Origin: a virus
Lineage: Duplodnaviria; Caudoviricetes
Virus record (IMG/VR): IMGVR_UViG_3300025679_000005
Length of the DNA: 64,000 nt
Reading direction: 5' to 3' (one strand)
Shown: positions 8,291-57,300 of the stretch, in pieces
Layout: each line of letters begins with the position of its first letter
Numbering within the stretch: position 1 is the stretch's first letter
The notes under the pieces: model-generated
The model's input: the letters and a program-made list of their open reading frames with translations, nothing else
What the model was told of the DNA's origin: nothing
Databases searched by the model: none
Program-made: the position numbers and the translations under genes

Positions 8291-8317
8291 GTGTTTACAC
8301 CGAGCTGGTGTAAACAC
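8291..8317. promoter_or_regulatory. Palindromic divergent promoter pair (two back-to-back GGTGTA motifs)
   Basis: GTGTTTACACC-GAGCT-GGTGTAAACAC; each GGTGTA is 9 nt from an ATG (8286 on minus, 8322 on plus). Confidence 0.7.
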
Positions 8318-33653: not shown

Positions 33654-33872
33654 GCGTGGTCCTTACACCAAAAGGAGGGCCTCGGAGGAGTTTACGCCGA
33701 AACCTACGATATCCCTTAACTTTGAGCAGGAAATGGACGTACCGATGGTGTATTCCATGACACGGCTTGCGAGAGGTTCGGTGCCAGCAAAAAGGCCGGG
33801 ACCGCTCGCAGTAACCGCAAGCTCTCTGAAAACCTAACGATTTTTACCGACACTGGCCCGAGGTGCGTTCTC

Positions 33873-33898
33873 TGTGTAGACTCTCACTGAGTTGAAAC
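33873..33898 (+). promoter_or_regulatory. Array promoter (TGTGTAGACT) followed by an isolated 11-nt repeat handle TGAGTTGAAAC
   Basis: One mismatch to the GGTGTA motif; handle starts 10 nt after the motif A. Confidence 0.55.
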
Positions 33899-33958
33899 CG
33901 GAGGCTCTCGCAAAACCAGTGCCAGGTATTCGTATTCATACGACCAATCTGAATACGT

Positions 33959-36900
33959 CCTCAGAGGCTATTGGCTTCTGAGGTGAATTGAAACGTCTGC
34001 GTAGGTGCTCGTGGCGAGCGTGACCGATTCCGCCTCAGAGGCTATTGGCTTCTGAGGTGAATTGAAACGGGTTGTTCGCAAAACACAGCTAGACCGGCTC
34101 CGCCCCTCAGAGGCTATTGGCTTCTGAGGTGAATTGAAACAAGGAAGTTGAGCGGGACGCGGCCGATACCATGAAGCCTCAGAGGCTATTGGCTTCTGAG
34201 GTGAATTGAAACGTGTCAATCGCATCCAATTGCAGTTGGGCCTTGCTCCCTCAGAGGCTATTGGCTTCTGAGGTGAATTGAAACCGGCTGGATATCGGCC
34301 AATGCCTCGATGTCTCCAATCCTCAGAGGCTATTGGCTTCTGAGGTGAATTGAAACCAGAGCGGGGACACTGTCGCCTCGATTGCTACGGGGCCTCAGAG
34401 GCTATTGGCTTCTGAGGTGAATTGAAACGCCAGCACTACCGATCCAACCGCTTTGACGGTTAGGGCCCTCAGAGGCTATTGGCTTCTGAGGTGAATTGAA
34501 ACTACTGGGTGCGCGATCTTGAGCGCCTCCTAATCCAGCCTCAGAGGCTATTGGCTTCTGAGGTGAATTGAAACCTGGACGGCTATCAGCTCGCTCAAGC
34601 AGACCGAGCCAACCTCAGAGGCTATTGGCTTCTGAGGTGAATTGAAACTCCATGGACACGGCAATGTGTACTTGCCAGCCGTTGCCCCTCAGAGGCTATT
34701 GGCTTCTGAGGTGAATTGAAACCAAACCTATAGCGAGATCACAGCCGCTGTCAGGGCCCCTCAGAGGCTATTGGCTTCTGAGGTGAATTGAAACATCATG
34801 ACCTCTACATCGGGGCCTACAAATCCGTTGCCCCTCAGAGGCTATTGGCTTCTGAGGTGAATTGAAACGTTAGCCGGGGCTTGATTTGGGACGCAATGTC
34901 GGAGCCTCAGAGGCTATTGGCTTCTGAGGTGAATTGAAACAGCGTGAGCTTGTCGGGATGATCTAAGGCCCAACGCCTCAGAGGCTATTGGCTTCTGAGG
35001 TGAATTGAAACGAGACGGAAAGCCGTTTAACGATTTGATCCCCGCTCAGCCTCAGAGGCTATTGGCTTCTGAGGTGAATTGAAACCTACAGTCAGGACTG
35101 ACGTATAGGCGGGCTACCTCGACCTCAGAGGCTATTGGCTTCTGAGGTGAATTGAAACACCATCGAGAGGTTGACCCAGCGGTTTGGCTTGAGCCTCAGA
35201 GGCTATTGGCTTCTGAGGTGAATTGAAACAGGGTGGGGCAGGCGCACACCAGCTGCGTGCGCAGCCTCAGAGGCTATTGGCTTCTGAGGTGAATTGAAAC
35301 CAAAGCCCAAGAAAGCCAAGAGGAAGTAGTGGATTAGCCTCAGAGGCTATTGGCTTCTGAGGTGAATTGAAACGTCTGCAGCTCCTCGATTTTCTCTGAT
35401 GCGATCGATCCTCAGAGGCTATTGGCTTCTGAGGTGAATTGAAACAGGCGGGGAATGCCAAGTTGATCGCGCGGATCCAACCCCCTCAGAGGCTATTGGC
35501 TTCTGAGGTGAATTGAAACCATGGTGGGTTGCTTCGCCGGCCGTATGCTGGGGAGCCTCAGAGGCTATTGGCTTCTGAGGTGAATTGAAACGGGGCGTCA
35601 ACAGGGGACGGAACGAGAGTGAACGATTCCTCAGAGGCTATTGGCTTCTGAGGTGAATTGAAACTTGGTAACGTCGGTCGGCAGCTAGGCCGAACACACG
35701 GAGCCTCAGAGGCTATTGGCTTCTGAGGTGAATTGAAACTTGGCCTTTGAGGTCTTGGCCCTGTGCCTATCTTTGCCTCAGAGGCTATTGGCTTCTGAGG
35801 TGAATTGAAACAGCTACTATTTCCCGCTCTACATCCCAGCGGGCTCGACAGCCTCAGAGGCTATTGGCTTCTGAGGTGAATTGAAACTGGGGGATGCGTT
35901 TGGTCTTGGGCTTGCCCTTGGCATCCTCAGAGGCTATTGGCTTCTGAGGTGAATTGAAACCAAGAAGCGTTTGAACTTGATCGGATCCGCACTGTGCCTC
36001 AGAGGCTATTGGCTTCTGAGGTGAATTGAAACACTTACAACACGTTGCCGGAGACCTGGGAGAGCACCCTCAGAGGCTATTGGCTTCTGAGGTGAATTGA
36101 AACGCGGGGTTTGCGGGGGGCATACCCTCAGCGGCTGACCTCAGAGGCTATTGGCTTCTGAGGTGAATTGAAACCAAGAGCGTCGGGTCATGAATCTGCT
36201 CAAGAAGACATCCTCAGAGGCTATTGGCTTCTGAGGTGAATTGAAACGGCCAGCTTCGGAGCCGCTCTTGGATGTCCTCCGACCAAGCCTCAGAGGCTAT
36301 TGGCTTCTGAGGTGAATTGAAACGCTACGAGGATCCAGGCTAGCTGGCGAATGAACCACCTCAGAGGCTATTGGCTTCTGAGGTGAATTGAAACTAGGGC
36401 AGCCCCTGAGGGGACGGAGCATCCCGTGAGGCCTCAGAGGCTATTGGCTTCTGAGGTGAATTGAAACGCGAACTGCTTGGCCAAGGGAGCGACAGCCTGA
36501 GCGACCCTCAGAGGCTATTGGCTTCTGAGGTGAATTGAAACGAGCTGCAACTGAGCTGCCTGGGATGGCCCAGTAGAGCCTCAGAGGCTATTGGCTTCTG
36601 AGGTGAATTGAAACGACCAACGACCCTCGCCGAAGTGTCGGGACTTCCCGGCCTCAGAGGCTATTGGCTTCTGAGGTGAATTGAAACAGTCCTTGGCGTT
36701 GCCATTCGAGGCAGCCATCGACCCCTCAGAGGCTATTGGCTTCTGAGGTGAATTGAAACATGTAATATAATACGGTATGGAACCTACACACTTAACCTCA
36801 GAGGCTATTTGGCTTCTGATGTGAATTGAAACAAAGACCTCGACACTGGTGGTCGTCGTCGACCCTCAGAGGTCTCTGATCTCTGAGGTGCGTTGAAACG

Positions 36901-39599
36901 ATCGAAAGCGTGAGGTGCTATCAGAGGGTCTATGATCTCTGATCTCTGAGGTGGATTGAAACACACGGATTCGGACCTCATGCTCCGTGTTGACTTCCCT
37001 CAGGGTCATTGATCTCTGAGGTGAATTGAAACCTCCGAATGCTCACGCCGGCAGAGCGTCGTCATGGGGAGCCTCAGAGGTCTCTGATCTCTGAGGTGAA
37101 TTGAAACGAGACGATCCAGGTCGTGGTCGCCACGTGCGGACAAGCCCTCAGAGGTCTCTGATCTCTGAGGTGAATTGAAACGCTCACCTAGTGACCGAGG
37201 AAAAGAAGGTCGATGGCCTCAGAGGTCTCTGATCTCTGAGGTGAATTGAAACGATTCTGCCGCTCCCCCTAAGCGCTCATGTCGAGCGCCTCAGAAGGCT
37301 CTGATCTCTGAGGTGAGTTGAAACGATTCCCGTGTGCCCCGCTACGTCCAATCACGGACGCACCTCAGAGGTCTATGATCTCTGAGGTGAATTGAAACTG
37401 GTAAGAGCCGGTGGCGTATACCTCGAAGTCCGCACTCCTCTGATCTCTGAGGTGAATTGAAACAGGCAGGGGTCACAGAGCTTGCGACCGACCTTGACCT
37501 CAGAGGTCTATGATCTCTGAGGTGAATTGAAACACTTGCTTCGTGGTCATGCCAGGTCGGGGGACACTCAACCTCAGAGGTCTAGGATCTATGATCTCTG
37601 AGGTGAATTGAAACGAATGGGCACGTTGGAATGCACTAAGATGGTTGGCGGCCTCAGAGGCCTATGATCTCTGAAGGTGTATTGAAACAAGGCACTGCGA
37701 GTCTTTGACGCTTCCGCGAAGGCTGTCTCAGAGGTCTATGATCTCTGAGGTGAATTGAAACCTCACGAGCAACAAGAGGCCACGGGCGCAGCCCCGGCCT
37801 CTTTGGTCACTGATCCCGGAGGTGAGTTGAAACTTCAGGAGAACTCAGAGGCTATTGGCTTCTGAGTTGAGTTGAAATTCCTGCTGAATCGTGATGCCTG
37901 TAGCCTAAGTGAGTTGAAACAGCCGTAGCGAATAGCCATGTGAGTAGAGAGGCTACCTGAGGTCAATGATCTCAGAGTGAGTTGAAACGTCGTGATGGAG
38001 CGTGTGCACTCGACGGTCAGAGCCATCCTCTGAGGTCTTTAATCCCCGGAGGTGAATTGAAACGCCAGCGCGACCGTTACGAACGATGCCCGGAGGTCCC
38101 TCTGGGGTCTTTGATCCCGGAGGTGAGTTGAAACACAGACACTCTTGGGCTTTAACATCGTTCCTCAGAGGTCTATGATCTCTGAGGTGAATTGAAACAC
38201 TTCGGAGGCGGCCTTTGGAGGTCACATGTCTACTACCCTCAGAGGTCTATGATCTCTGAGGTGAGTTGAAACAGGGCGGCGCTTCGACAGATGCTCCAAG
38301 ACAACGCACCTCAGAGGTCGTTGATCTCAGAGGTGAATTGAAACGGAGTCTGCTGAAGCAGATCGTCAATAGCGATCTTGGTGCCTCAGAGGTCTCTGAT
38401 CTCTGAGGTGAGTTGAAACACGTGGAGCGGCAGGCCAGCTAGGCTTCTCCGGATCCCTCAGAGGTCTCTGATCCCTGAGGTGAATTGAAACCAGGTACGG
38501 CCAACGTACCCCTTGGCGTGGGACTTCTGAGGTCTCTGATCTTAGAAGTGAATTGAAACATGAAGCCCAGCTCGTCCAGCGCCTTGATGTGCGGGGCCTC
38601 AGAGGTTCTGAGGTGAGTTGAAACGACTCCATCAGTGGACGCTGCGTCCACGCCGGATCCTCTGTGGTGTCATTGATCTCAGAGGTGGATTGAAACCAGG
38701 CCGCTCAGCGGTGTACCTATAGAGGTCTGAGGTCGGGGATCTCGTGAATTGAAACCTGAGCCAACCTCGTTGGACTGCTGGGTATCGAAGGCTTCTGAGA
38801 TCAATGATCTCAGAAGTGAGTTGAAACGCGAGCTGCTCTCACCGTGTCTGACAACCCCGCGGATCCTCTGGCTCACAGAGGTGAGTTGAAACATCAGAAC
38901 TGGCCTGCGAAGGTCGAAGGTCGTCTAGTCCTCTGGGGTCATTGATCCTGGAGGTGAGTTGAAACGTCTGGTCGGAACCCTATAGTGATCGTCAGAATTG
39001 GCCTCCAGGGTCTTTGGATCCTGGAGGTGAGTTGAAACATCGACGACGGCCCGGGAATGCTACCAGATGGCAACCTCAGAGGTCTCTGATCTCTGAGGTG
39101 AATTGAAACGCCGTGGTGGGCGCGTAGTCGCCAGCCTTGATCAAACCTCAGTGGTCTCTGATCTCTGAGGTGGATTGAAACGTTGGGGTGCGATGGGCTG
39201 CATCGGTCCTCAGAGGTCTATGATCTCTGAGGTGAATTGAAACCTCTGAGCTGAGCCGTACGGGTGCAAACCGATCCACTCCTCAGAGGTCTATGATCTC
39301 TGAGGTGAATTGAAACGCGGGTCAGGAATCCGTAGAACAAGCGCTCCAGGAGCGGCCTCAGAGGTCTCTGAGGTGAATTGAAACAACGGTCTGGTGTGGG
39401 ACTGCAAACCGCGGGTGGCTGCCTCAGAGGTCTCTGATCTCTGAGGTGAATTGAAACGTGAGCGAACACAAAGTGCTCTCAACCGCGACCGAACACCTCA
39501 GAGGTCTAGGATCTCTGAGGTGAATTGAAACAGAGGTAGTCGGCAGAGAAGATAGAATTCGGCTTCAGGGCCGACTTTCTTCCTGAAGTGTATTGAAAT
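33959..39599 (+). CRISPR. Type I-C-like CRISPR array, about 80 repeats: 40 near-identical (33959-36832) then about 40 degenerate (36864-39599)
   Basis: 36-nt repeat CCTCAGAGGCTATTGGCTTCTGAGGTGAATTGAAAC (hairpin plus 11-nt tail); distal consensus CCTCAGAGGTCT(C/A)TGATCTCTGAGGTGA(A/G)TTGAAAC; spacers mostly 34-40 nt. Confidence 0.98.
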
Positions 39600-39710: not shown

Positions 39711-40352
39711 ATGGTCGAAATCAAAAGCAAAATGTACAACATCGAGATGCGAGGCCGCTTGGCCTGCTTCACAGCCGTCGAATCGAAGATCGAGCGGGTC
39801 TCGTACCCCATCCCCACCCCCTCAGCAGTAGAGGGCGCCTTGAGTGGCGTCATGGGGAAGCACGAGATCCAATGGCACTTGTCCCAGTGCCGCGTGCTCT
39901 CCAAGATCAGGCATACGCCCGTTCGTCGCAATGAGCTGAAGGAGTTCGGCAACAATCCTGTCTACATTGAGAACAACCGCGCCCAACGCACCACCCTGTA
40001 CCTGAAGGACGTGCACTACGTGTTCTCGGTCTTCATGACGATTCGGCCCGATGCCTTCACCAGGGACATCGTCAAGTACGAGTCCATGTTCGAACGTCGC
40101 ATGGAAGGCGGGCAGTTCGAATACTACCCGTATTTCGGCTTACGGGAACTCGCGGTCAGTCGTTACGCTTTGGTGGACGACCTGAGCCAGTTCACGCCTA
40201 TCCCGTTCTCACAGAACTTCGGTCGGATGTTCTACGGCCACCAGTATCGTGATCGTCGAGTCGTTTCCAGTAAGTTCTGGGAAGCCAAAATCGTCAGAGG
40301 CATCGTCAACTACCCATCGCGAGATGAGATCTTCGGAGAAATTGAAACATGA
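39711..40352 (+). CDS. cas5: Type I-C Cas5 (Cas5d)
   Basis: ACFT...KIERVSYPIPTPSA, RRNE, LKDVHY, MFERR..GGQ...PYFGLRE. Confidence 0.92.
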   Translation: MVEIKSKMYNIEMRGRLACFTAVESKIERVSYPIPTPSAVEGALSGVMGKHEIQWHLSQCRVLSKIRHTPVRRNELKEFGNNPVYIENNRAQRTTLYLKDVHYVFSVFMTIRPDAFTRDIVKYESMFERRMEGGQFEYYPYFGLRELAVSRYALVDDLSQFTPIPFSQNFGRMFYGHQYRDRRVVSSKFWEAKIVRGIVNYPSRDEIFGEIET

Positions 40353-54216: not shown

Positions 54217-54307
54217 ATTCTCCGGCCTGGTGTATATGACCCAGCAACACCCGCTCAGGGGTTCCAATACTGTGACCAGATCCCAGAGCTATTGCTCTGC
54301 AAGTTCC

Positions 54308-57300
54308 TCAGTCATCATCATTGATCAGAGCCCACAGCTGCCGACCAATGCTCATCCCCGACAGATGTTGGCTCCCCACACCCGCCGAGGCCAGCATGCT
54401 CTCATTGTCGAGCCCGTCAGTCGATATCGAGATCTCGACTTTACGCATGAGCAACTCGTACATCTGCTCTTGTAGGGTGTCCTTGAAGACAGCGAAGTGG
54501 ATGCGGGTGTCCTTCTTCTGACCAATACGGTCTACTCGACCGACTGCCTGCCGGAACATGATCGGGCTACACATCGGGTTCTCCATCCACAATTCTGTGG
54601 AGAAGTGGACCAACGAATTCAAACCCGTGCTCACGGAGGCGGGGTTGACAATCAATACCCGGGAATTCTTCTTGACTACGTGCTGCTCTATCCACGTTTG
54701 GCGCTTACTCGTGGGGACGCGGTCAGCATAAAGGATCGGGGCCTTCACCCCTAGGCGCTCCTCAATGAGGCGGGCAATCCTAGGAAGCAACGTCGTGTGC
54801 CAAGCAAAGACCATGGCATTGCGACCCTCGGCCAGTTCCGCCTTGAGGGTGTCGAGCATCCACTGCTCCTTGGCAGAGACCTCGGAAGCTGAGAACTGCT
54901 TACCAGTCGCCACGATCCCAGCGCCCACGGACTCGGGATACCGGATCTCGTAGGTCCCGTCATCGTTATTGCCAGTGTCCGCCGTTGATCGATCCAAGTA
55001 GCTGGGCAGCTCTGACAGCTGGCCGAACAGCTTCCCCGACAGGTCCGGATCGAAGCGATCCTTCTTGATCTGATCCCTCAATGAGGCCAGAAGGGATTTG
55101 TAGCTGCCCAGTAGCTCGGAATCAGCTTCCACCACATGCTTCGTGACAGTGCAGGGCGGGATGTCAATGGCTAGGTCTGCCTTGTGCAAGGTCACAGACA
55201 CGGGCAGGAGGTGCCGGAACAAGAACAGGGGGAGAATGCCAGGGGCATCTCCGGCTGTGCGTTCGCTTCGCTGCACACGATCGGACATGGCCCCGAAGGC
55301 TACGACCTCCCCAGACTCCTTATCCTTGTCAGAAATGATTCGCTTCCGGTAGCCGTAGCGGTCAATGAACCGTTGGGCATCTTCCCTGGCGAACTCATGC
55401 CGGAAGTCCGGAGACAGCGCCCACATGTTCGTGTACAAGGACTTCGCGTAGCCGTTCATGACAGAGCCGGTCATGAACAGGGTGGGGATACCAAGGCCGG
55501 TTAGAGAATGGTAGGCTTGCGATTGAGCTGAGTCCGCATTAGCTGCCTCATGGCTTTCGTCTAAGCATATGAAGTCAAACAGATTCGGAGAGTATTTGGC
55601 GATGTGCTTCGCCAACGCCACTCGACGGGGTTCGGGTACCGCCTGGAACAAAGCCTCTCCGCATTCTGGGGTCAAGTAGATCTTACCACAAGCAATAAGC
55701 CCCGTAAGGATGGCCTCAGCAAGGTCTAGACTGTTGGCCTCCTTGGCATCTAGGGTCAAAACCCCGTCAGTCCACTTGAGCATCCCCAAATGGGTGTTGT
55801 GACCGTAGGACCTGGCCGCCTTGTAGTACATGTCCCAGCTCTGCCAATTGCTGGTCTCAAATAGTCCGGTCAGCTCCTTTTGGAGTTCCGTTCCCTCTTC
55901 AAGCAGGTAAACCAGGTTCTTCGCCATGTCCTTGATGTAGTATTCCTGGTGTTGGGACAGGATCCGAACATAGCGAGCAATTCGAGCAGGGTCGTAGGCG
56001 GCCATCAACAGCTTGGCGAACAGCTTGGGCAGCTCACCTTCGTTGGTCGAGTTGAGCATCATCTTGGCGAACACGAGATCGGTCATGTGCTCGACGTTGG
56101 CTGGCTGGAACACCCACTCGGGGCGTTCGTCTTTCGGAACCAGTGCGTTCTTGTCGAGGATCCTGTTCAAGTGCACCGTCCTCAGAATGCCCCGAAGGCG
56201 ATGACTCTCAGGGAGGTGCTCTAGAAGCTGCAAGCCGAACGAGTAGGCGGCTAGGCCCAGATCATCCTTGATCGAAATGTCTCTGTTCTCGCAACGAAGG
56301 CGCTTCTTGACGGCATCTTCCTTGGGCAGCTCACCGCCACACTTCGGGCAGCTCTTGGTAACGGCTTCCCAGCCATGGCCTAGCTTGGCCGTTTCCCGGG
56401 ACAGAATCGCCACCAGAAAGCGTTCCGCTGGAATGTCAGCCAATGCCTCGATGTCTCCAATGTCCTTCAAGACCCGCACCTCAGCGTCAGGAAACGTGGC
56501 CGAGGTCTCATTGGTCCAAGAGGTCAGAAGATGAGGCGGGCAAAGGACAAGCATTCTCTTGGCGATTGTCCTAGCGACCGTTAGTGCCAGGCAGCTCTTA
56601 CCACTGCCGATTTCGCCCAAAAGCTGGGCAGATCGATACTTTCTGTCCTTGGCCTTGTTCCCACCCAAAAGCATCACCAACGCCTTGGCTGAGTGCTCCT
56701 GAGCTTTGAAGAGTTTTCTCGCCGTTGGGGCCAAGGTCACCGAGTCCGCATCCCGCTTGGGATCGTACATGACAGGGCACTGTTGCTGCATAACCCCCAT
56801 GAGGCTAGGCCCGTAGTGCTTGAGCAAGTCCTCAATGGTCATTTTCTCGACATCGAGGACTTTCGACTCCCCACCGGATCCCAGGGTCGTGTACTTTTTG
56901 GTACTCAAGTCCAAGATCGTCGTAATCAGCTTCGGCTGCTGAACCTGAACAACCGAGGTCACATCCCCGTCCTTGTTTTTCTTCTCCTCGACGGTGACGA
57001 ACTCCCGATCGAACACTCCCTTGACCAAGAGGTCGGGGAGGCCTTCGGTTTCTGAAGATACCCGGCGACCATTGAACAGCCCTGAGGCGATCCCCGCGGC
57101 AATGTGGGCGGGCCTAGGGGGCGTAGCCAACTTGTACGTCCGGAACATCAGCTCTTCTACGGGAAGCTCAGGGATGATGTGAGGCACCGGGACGTAAGAG
57201 CCCAGGCGATTGCTTTGGGTCCAAGGACGAACCTTCTTCAATAGCCCAATGCGGTCGAAGGCCCGCATGCCCCAATCGGTCGTGTAGACGTTGCTCTGCG

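Follow-up and report, generated by a model that had tools for sequence, protein, structure and literature searches.

Upstream of the type I-C CRISPR array of a huge phage (genome of ~465 kb), 60 nt before the first of its ~80 plus-strand repeats, stands a stray copy of the 11-nt repeat tail. Does the transcript of this array begin exactly at a ready-made crRNA 5' handle? An earlier note on this DNA had proposed so, with an atypical first crRNA-like RNA arising without processing. We analysed the stretch of 64,000 nucleotides that contains the array (hereafter the window), together with ~8 kb of DNA of the same phage beyond the window's end (L082) and four related phage loci (L073, L074, L076 and L079) that were reached via Cas5d homologues of 61-65% identity. 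Part of the proposal stood, as the handle is intact and hairpin-less and a promoter look-alike lies at the right spacing from it; but the 60-nt 'guide' turned out to be a leader module, the look-alike, TGTGTA, is weak and no PAM-flanked target was found in the DNA searched. The reading that we prefer, with about even confidence, is that the orphan handle is the stranded tail of a decayed repeat beside a conserved leader module and that transcription starts upstream of both. The features concerned are collected in Table 1.

Table 1. Features of the array, its upstream region and the related arrays (window positions unless a locus is named)
Feature	Position	Strand	Remarks
Intact phage promoter core GGTGTA	33747..33752	+	8.5 bits; 126 nt upstream of TGTGTA; predicted start near 33762
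Weak repeat-like fragment CACTGGCCCGAGGTGCGTT	33851..33869	+	similar to old repeat variants in loop, 3' arm and the first 6 bases of the handle
TGTGTA, 5/6 look-alike of promoter core	33873..33878	+	9 nt before handle
Orphan 11-nt repeat tail (crRNA 5' handle) TGAGTTGAAAC	33888..33898	+	G variant, as in older repeats
Conserved leader module, not spacer	33899..33958	+	contains GGAGGCTCTCGCAAAAC at 33900-33916; CTCGCA begins 52 nt before repeat 1
8-bp stem with 11-nt loop	33931..33957	+	one base before repeat 1
Type I-C array	33959..39599	+	40 identical new-type repeats first, diverged older repeats after
Second hairpin-less unit with intact TGAGTTGAAAC	37885..37920	+	within array; body fold 0.0 kcal/mol
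cas5d	39711..40352	+	product predicted to cleave repeat 1 and to bind the handle; cas8c and cas7 lie downstream
I-C arrays of the relatives	L073 16941-17242; L074 9365-10416; L076 16785 onwards; L079 11774 onwards
Distance of CTCGCA(A/G)A to repeat 1			window 52; L074 51; L073 53; L076 51; L079 53; L082 CasPhi-type array 53

The array and its orphan repeat tail

Each repeat of the array is 36 nt long, with a 10-bp hairpin and, after it, the 11-nt tail TGAATTGAAAC; repeat 1 covers 33959-33994. In the older repeats the hairpin varies and the tail often takes the form TGAGTTGAAAC, a G variant that is absent from the 40 newest repeats. On the 3' side of the array follow cas5d, cas8c, cas7 and an SF2 helicase gene, with Pfam matches to PF09704, PF09709 and PF05107 in the cas5d-cas8c-cas7 stretch, and a scan of 19 ORFs around the array detected no adaptation genes. 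The I-C array comes before cas5d in the window but after the helicase cassette in the four relatives; the array or its leader module has been relocated. Within the old part of the array we also observed a new-type repeat ending GAAAT (37843-78), with a hairpin-less unit 6 nt further on; the stretch 37843-37920 looks like the junction of two once-separate arrays.

The region before the array reads as the earlier note had described it, with TGTGTAGACT at 33873-33882, the first A at 33878 and TGAGTTGAAAC starting 10 positions on. This orphan handle is identical to the G-variant repeat tail at 11/11 positions. TGARTTGAAAC occurs in 74 copies in the 64-kb window, 73 of them in the array and one, against 0.08 expected, at the orphan site, and a shuffle test over the 170 nt preceding repeat 1 gave p = 0.006. 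The absence of a hairpin was borne out as well: the 25 nt before the handle fold at -1.2 kcal/mol, compared with -16.7 kcal/mol for repeat 1, and the handle is without the directly preceding stem-loop that type I-C Cas5c cleavage needs. Cas5c-type enzymes require a stem-loop for their cut and leave an 11-nt 5' handle (PMC8524198), in agreement with the handle length that had been given for Cas5d cleavage. Since the orphan handle has no hairpin, only a transcription start could expose it.

Handle-like 11-mers (at most 2 mismatches) were found within 250 nt upstream of repeat 1 in none of 37 bacterial I-C arrays, against a background rate of 0.035 per 250 nt, so the orphan handle is not routine leader debris. 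The leaders of L073, L074, L076 and L079 contained no significant handle-like relics. Three assemblies of this phage were identical over the locus. In viral_contigs no close relatives came up, whether the query was Cas5d, a Cas5d alignment, the repeat tail or the neighbouring gene upstream, and a metagenome scan for the repeat tail returned only single chance matches. Among the INPHARED phages the leader was unmatched and the sole Cas5d match was one of 28%; Rfam gave nothing relevant.

The 60 nt before repeat 1

The 60 nt between the handle and repeat 1 (33899-33958) do end in an 8-bp stem, as had been pointed out, in which the paired arms are CGTATTCA (33931-38) and TGAATACG (33950-57), with the single base T33958 between stem and repeat. 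As a special structure the stem was rejected, the fold of the 60 nt being ordinary (z = -0.62). At the same place in the relatives a hairpin is clear, though unrelated, in L074 only; it is less clear in L073 and L076, and L079 has none.

What identifies this segment is the leader motif GGAGGC-N-CTCGCAAA, which lies 51-53 nt before repeat 1 in the I-C array of the window, in the I-C arrays of the four relatives (in the form (G)AGG(C)-N-CTCGCA(A/G)A) and in the CasPhi-type array of this phage. Both sequence and distance are conserved in these six arrays, five of which are without any handle. As the proposed guide opens with 18 nt that also stand in arrays without a handle, these are to be read as a conserved leader signal and not as a guide, which counts against an RNA born with its handle. 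In the CasPhi-type array (L082 6093-6146, about 65860-65913 in window numbering) CTCGCAAA is followed by a 13.2-bit GGTGTA that lies 40 nt before repeat 1; with this promoter between motif and repeat, the motif lies upstream of the start, is not transcribed and acts as DNA there. At the -40 position L073 and L079 keep the degenerate forms CTGTAAGT and GTCGTAAGT, and the I-C leader of the window has lost the promoter.

A relationship of the leader module to a spacer was considered and rejected, the stretch TCGCAAAAC that it has in common with spacer 2 giving p = 0.41. The leader contains an imperfect direct repeat, 33813-33835 against 33896-33918 (AACCGCAAGCTCTCTGAAAACCT and AACCGGAGGCTCTCGCAAAACCA, 18/23 positions), whose upstream member gives the leader motif a second time, in degenerate form; the motif is also repeated in L079 and L074. 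An HU/IHF-like protein (PF00216) is encoded at 4333-4623 of L082 and is a candidate partner of the conserved leader module.

If the 60 nt served as a guide, a target might be expected next to TTC, the canonical I-C PAM. The use of TTC in this phage is supported by a near-copy of spacer 5 in one of its own genes (56423-56461), which has a 5'-TTC flank and whose differences from the spacer, an indel among them, fall in the PAM-proximal part. The search that the earlier note had suggested, for TTC followed by a partial match to the 60 nt, found no TTC-flanked seed match to 33899-33958 in the window, in the ~8 kb beyond its end or in the loci of the relatives, and none at the cas5d promoter; this again speaks against an RNA born with its handle. 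The best match (8/10) lay inside a gene, with mismatches at positions 1-2. A guide aimed at the leader motifs of other arrays was rejected, the related motifs being mismatched at seed positions 1-2 and lacking TTC, and this too weighs against such an RNA.

Promoter signals and the start of transcription

In the window this phage uses the promoter signature [CT][CT]GGTGTA, followed after 9-14 nt by the start codon of a leaderless gene (~28 cases); the GGTGTA motif is not of the sigma-70 type. The commonest spacings between GGTGTA and the start are 9 and 10 nt, with 9 nt ranking second. The distance from TGTGTA to the handle is 9 nt, so that the match in spacing with the leaderless start codons, on which the proposal had been built, was upheld, and a transcription start at 33888-33890 is a fair prediction from it. 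Palindromic promoter pairs, TACACC and GGTGTA placed back to back, were also observed at 8300/8308, 12762/12770, 18562/18569 and 63766/63774, where they drive divergent leaderless genes.

With a promoter weight matrix built from 31 gene starts, the site at 33873 scored 4.7 bits, compared with a median of 14.9 bits for real promoters, and ranked 160 of 127,952 positions. It is without the first G of the core, which is present in 34/36 gene-start sites of the window and the four related loci. Sites at gene starts make up 7% of those scoring 4-6 bits but 92% of those at or above 13 bits. The chance of finding a site of at least 4.7 bits at one of the five usual spacings is p ~0.006, a coincidence that is notable but does not amount to proof.

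Transcription from TGTGTA that started at 33888-33890 would give an RNA born with a 10-11-nt 5' handle; a Cas5d cut of repeat 1 would set its 3' end, and the resulting RNA of ~95 nt would load a nuclease-free Cascade as a regulator or decoy. We regard this as possible but on balance improbable. The perfect, hairpin-less handle argues for it, as do the spacing that fits the leaderless genes, the identity of GTGTAGACT to the core of the real leaderless promoter at 63774, the lack of any such feature in the 37 bacterial I-C leaders and a layout that parallels CreR (see below), whose first pseudo-repeat keeps mainly handle bases. It can also draw on a second locus at 54229-54300, where an intact-core promoter (GGTGTA, 10.3 bits) drives a solitary copy of the CasPhi-type repeat, followed by a short tail and a hairpin; because the predicted start (~54245) falls on the first bases of this repeat, promoter-coupled repeat units do exist in this phage genome. 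Besides the leader identity of its 'guide' and the lack of a target in the DNA searched, the weak core, about 10 bits below typical promoters and devoid of the near-invariant first G, stands against it, as does the absence of the handle from the four relatives. In a related version, which we think unlikely, a phage promoter was inserted at the boundary of hairpin and handle of an old repeat, and the leader transcript, with a handle made by initiation and a 3' end made by cleavage at repeat 1, would load the nuclease-free Cascade as a long-guide regulator or serve as a subunit buffer.

A start further upstream is suggested by the intact GGTGTA at 33747. This core scores like the site before cas5d (39665, 8.7 bits) and faces no gene, and its predicted start falls in non-coding DNA that runs into the array. 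No terminator-like site was detected between it and the array, and a start well upstream of the handle is for that reason the more likely prediction. The core at 33747 is the likeliest candidate for the main pre-crRNA promoter.

TGTGTA might instead be a weak second promoter that merely boosts transcription of the array, the handle being incidental and the leader fragment discarded, which we consider quite improbable. The loss of the -40 promoter of the CasPhi-type leader from the I-C leader means that upstream promoters are needed, and other GGTGTA-like cores do lie within the array, at 38710 and 37676; but the TGTGTA motif is weak and the intact core at 33747 would suffice by itself. The cores inside the array (38710-38715, 37676-37681 and 39587-39592) are a GGTGTA in a spacer (6.7 bits), a GGTGTA created by the repeat variant AGGTGTATTGAAAC and the AGTGTA of the terminal repeat. 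They may serve the distal part of the array as internal promoters. Two further readings are very improbable. One is a match by pure chance, since the probability of an exact 11-mer this close to the array (within 200 nt) is ~1e-4. The other is a leaderless ORF of 29 codons from TTG 33892, which is 13 nt downstream of the A of TGTGTA; its frame runs on to a TGA in repeat 1, so that it would end inside a repeat, and it consists of a non-coding leader motif common to other arrays.

A proposed decayed repeat, and the known systems compared

If the handle is the remnant of a repeat, traces of that repeat might be sought upstream of it. The 10-mer GAGGTGCGTT (33860-69) recurs unchanged in the repeat at 36864-99, where it spans the junction between 3' arm and handle (p ~0.02-0.05), and 33851-69 aligns with the repeat at 37798-833 over 17/21 columns of a gapped alignment (p ~0.06-0.1). 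The 38 nt immediately before the handle, compared with repeat bodies, gave p = 0.65. The repeat-like similarity upstream of the handle is to be taken as only marginally significant. In a post hoc reading, dropping the 24 nt between the two copies of TG(C/A)GTT would restore the 3' half of an old-type repeat. The 18-nt segment between the two repeat-like pieces was rejected as a copied element, there being no second copy in the window. Hairpin-less units with an intact handle occur elsewhere, at 37885-37920 of the window and at 9420-55 and 10030-65 of L074. The unit in the window carries TGTAGCCT 3 nt before its handle; outside their handles the two orphan units (TGTAGACT and TGTAGCCT) showed no significant homology when aligned without bias (p = 0.35).

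We favour the decayed repeat because the leader motif is conserved in six arrays, five of them handle-free, because the handle is the G variant typical of older repeats, because repeat-like remnants stand a short way upstream of it (p ~0.02-0.1) and because hairpin-less units with an intact handle are present elsewhere in these arrays. The weakness of TGTGTA (4.7 bits against a median of 14.9), the intact upstream GGTGTA that serves no gene and has no terminator before the array, and the lack, in the DNA searched, of a TTC-flanked seed match to the 60 nt point the same way. On the other side stand the spacing coincidence (p ~0.006), the 0/37 bacterial I-C leaders with a handle and the upstream similarity, which is only marginal. 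Also against a relic is the chance of ~0.01-0.09, at 20-35% per-site decay, that a handle stays intact at 11/11 positions beside barely recognisable repeat flanks; the intact handle amid decayed flanks hints at selection.

According to the decayed-repeat reading, TGAGTTGAAAC would be the surviving 3' tail of an old-type repeat, stranded directly upstream of the leader. The leader module would be a portable signal of ~55-60 nt, placed at the head of arrays of more than one CRISPR type in this group of phages, and we infer that it most likely acts on DNA, as a site for docking or for control in spacer integration or in transcription of the array. The pre-crRNA would probably begin near 33762, from the intact GGTGTA at 33747, so that the handle would sit inside a leader RNA of ~220 nt, freed by the Cas5d cut at repeat 1. 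TGTGTA would be a weak look-alike born in the decayed hairpin region, which may fire at a low level. The sequence can be explained without any dedicated function.

If the handle is a relic only, its value is historical: it would mark the joining point of a portable leader and an older array and help to explain how arrays are founded anew in phages that have no adaptation genes. If transcription truly starts at the handle, the product would be the first type I guide-like RNA with a promoter-set 5' end and a natural Cascade RNA with a 60-nt body, and it would bear on the regulation of nuclease-free phage Cascades and on the design of processing-free type I guides.

Several known systems resemble this locus in part. 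Degenerate or truncated repeats have likewise lost the hairpin and kept the tail, as at 37885-37920 of the window and 9420-55 of L074. Such repeats are usually found at the trailer end or inside old arrays, whereas the orphan handle lies upstream of the leader, and 0/37 bacterial I-C leaders were alike. As to the leader module, the integration signals of the E. coli I-E leader include an IHF site and an integrase-anchoring site; the module is like them in that its motif is conserved and keeps a set distance from repeat 1, on the upstream side, but around the phage array no adaptation genes were detected in the 19 ORFs scanned.

Racr are solitary repeat units of phages that give crRNA-like anti-CRISPR RNAs. 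The orphan handle would be similar to these, and to Cracr, a crRNA-like anti-CRISPR RNA (bioRxiv 10.1101/2024.10.29.618823), in that a phage-encoded RNA with handle bases derived from a repeat could occupy Cas proteins. Racr and Cracr, however, mimic host repeats and disarm the host system, with the hairpin kept or the RNA matured by Cas proteins, whereas the Cascade to which the orphan handle belongs, like the array that it heads, is the phage's own.

The locus shares with the CreR/CreA RNAs a first pseudo-repeat that keeps the handle, a 'spacer' that was not acquired, a second repeat that gives the 3' end and a position inside a CRISPR-cas locus. CreR/CreA are cas-regulating degenerate mini-CRISPRs, in which ~11-15 nt of the spacer match a PAM-flanked site at the promoter of a cas or toxin gene (bioRxiv 10.1101/2023.03.10.532045; survey 10.1101/2023.03.03.530964). 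In the phage locus, by contrast, the 60-nt leader module stands in the place of the 'spacer', the second repeat is repeat 1 of the array itself and the DNA searched yielded no PAM-flanked target. Seen as a member of this family, the locus has the handle (11/11), falls short as to the target and shows, where a promoter of its own would be expected, only a weak motif. The phage pseudo-repeat has no hairpin, and Cas processing could therefore not make its 5' end, which is a further difference from CreR/CreA.

For a 5' end of this kind a comparison can be made with the type II-C system of Neisseria meningitidis, in which Zhang et al. (2013, Mol Cell 50:488) reportedly found processing-independent crRNAs, with a promoter in every repeat and starts that were mapped experimentally. 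The phage locus differs in having one weak site in a type I system, with a start predicted from sequence; the proposed RNA would be like the N. meningitidis crRNAs in that its 5' end is set by transcription initiation and not by nuclease cleavage.
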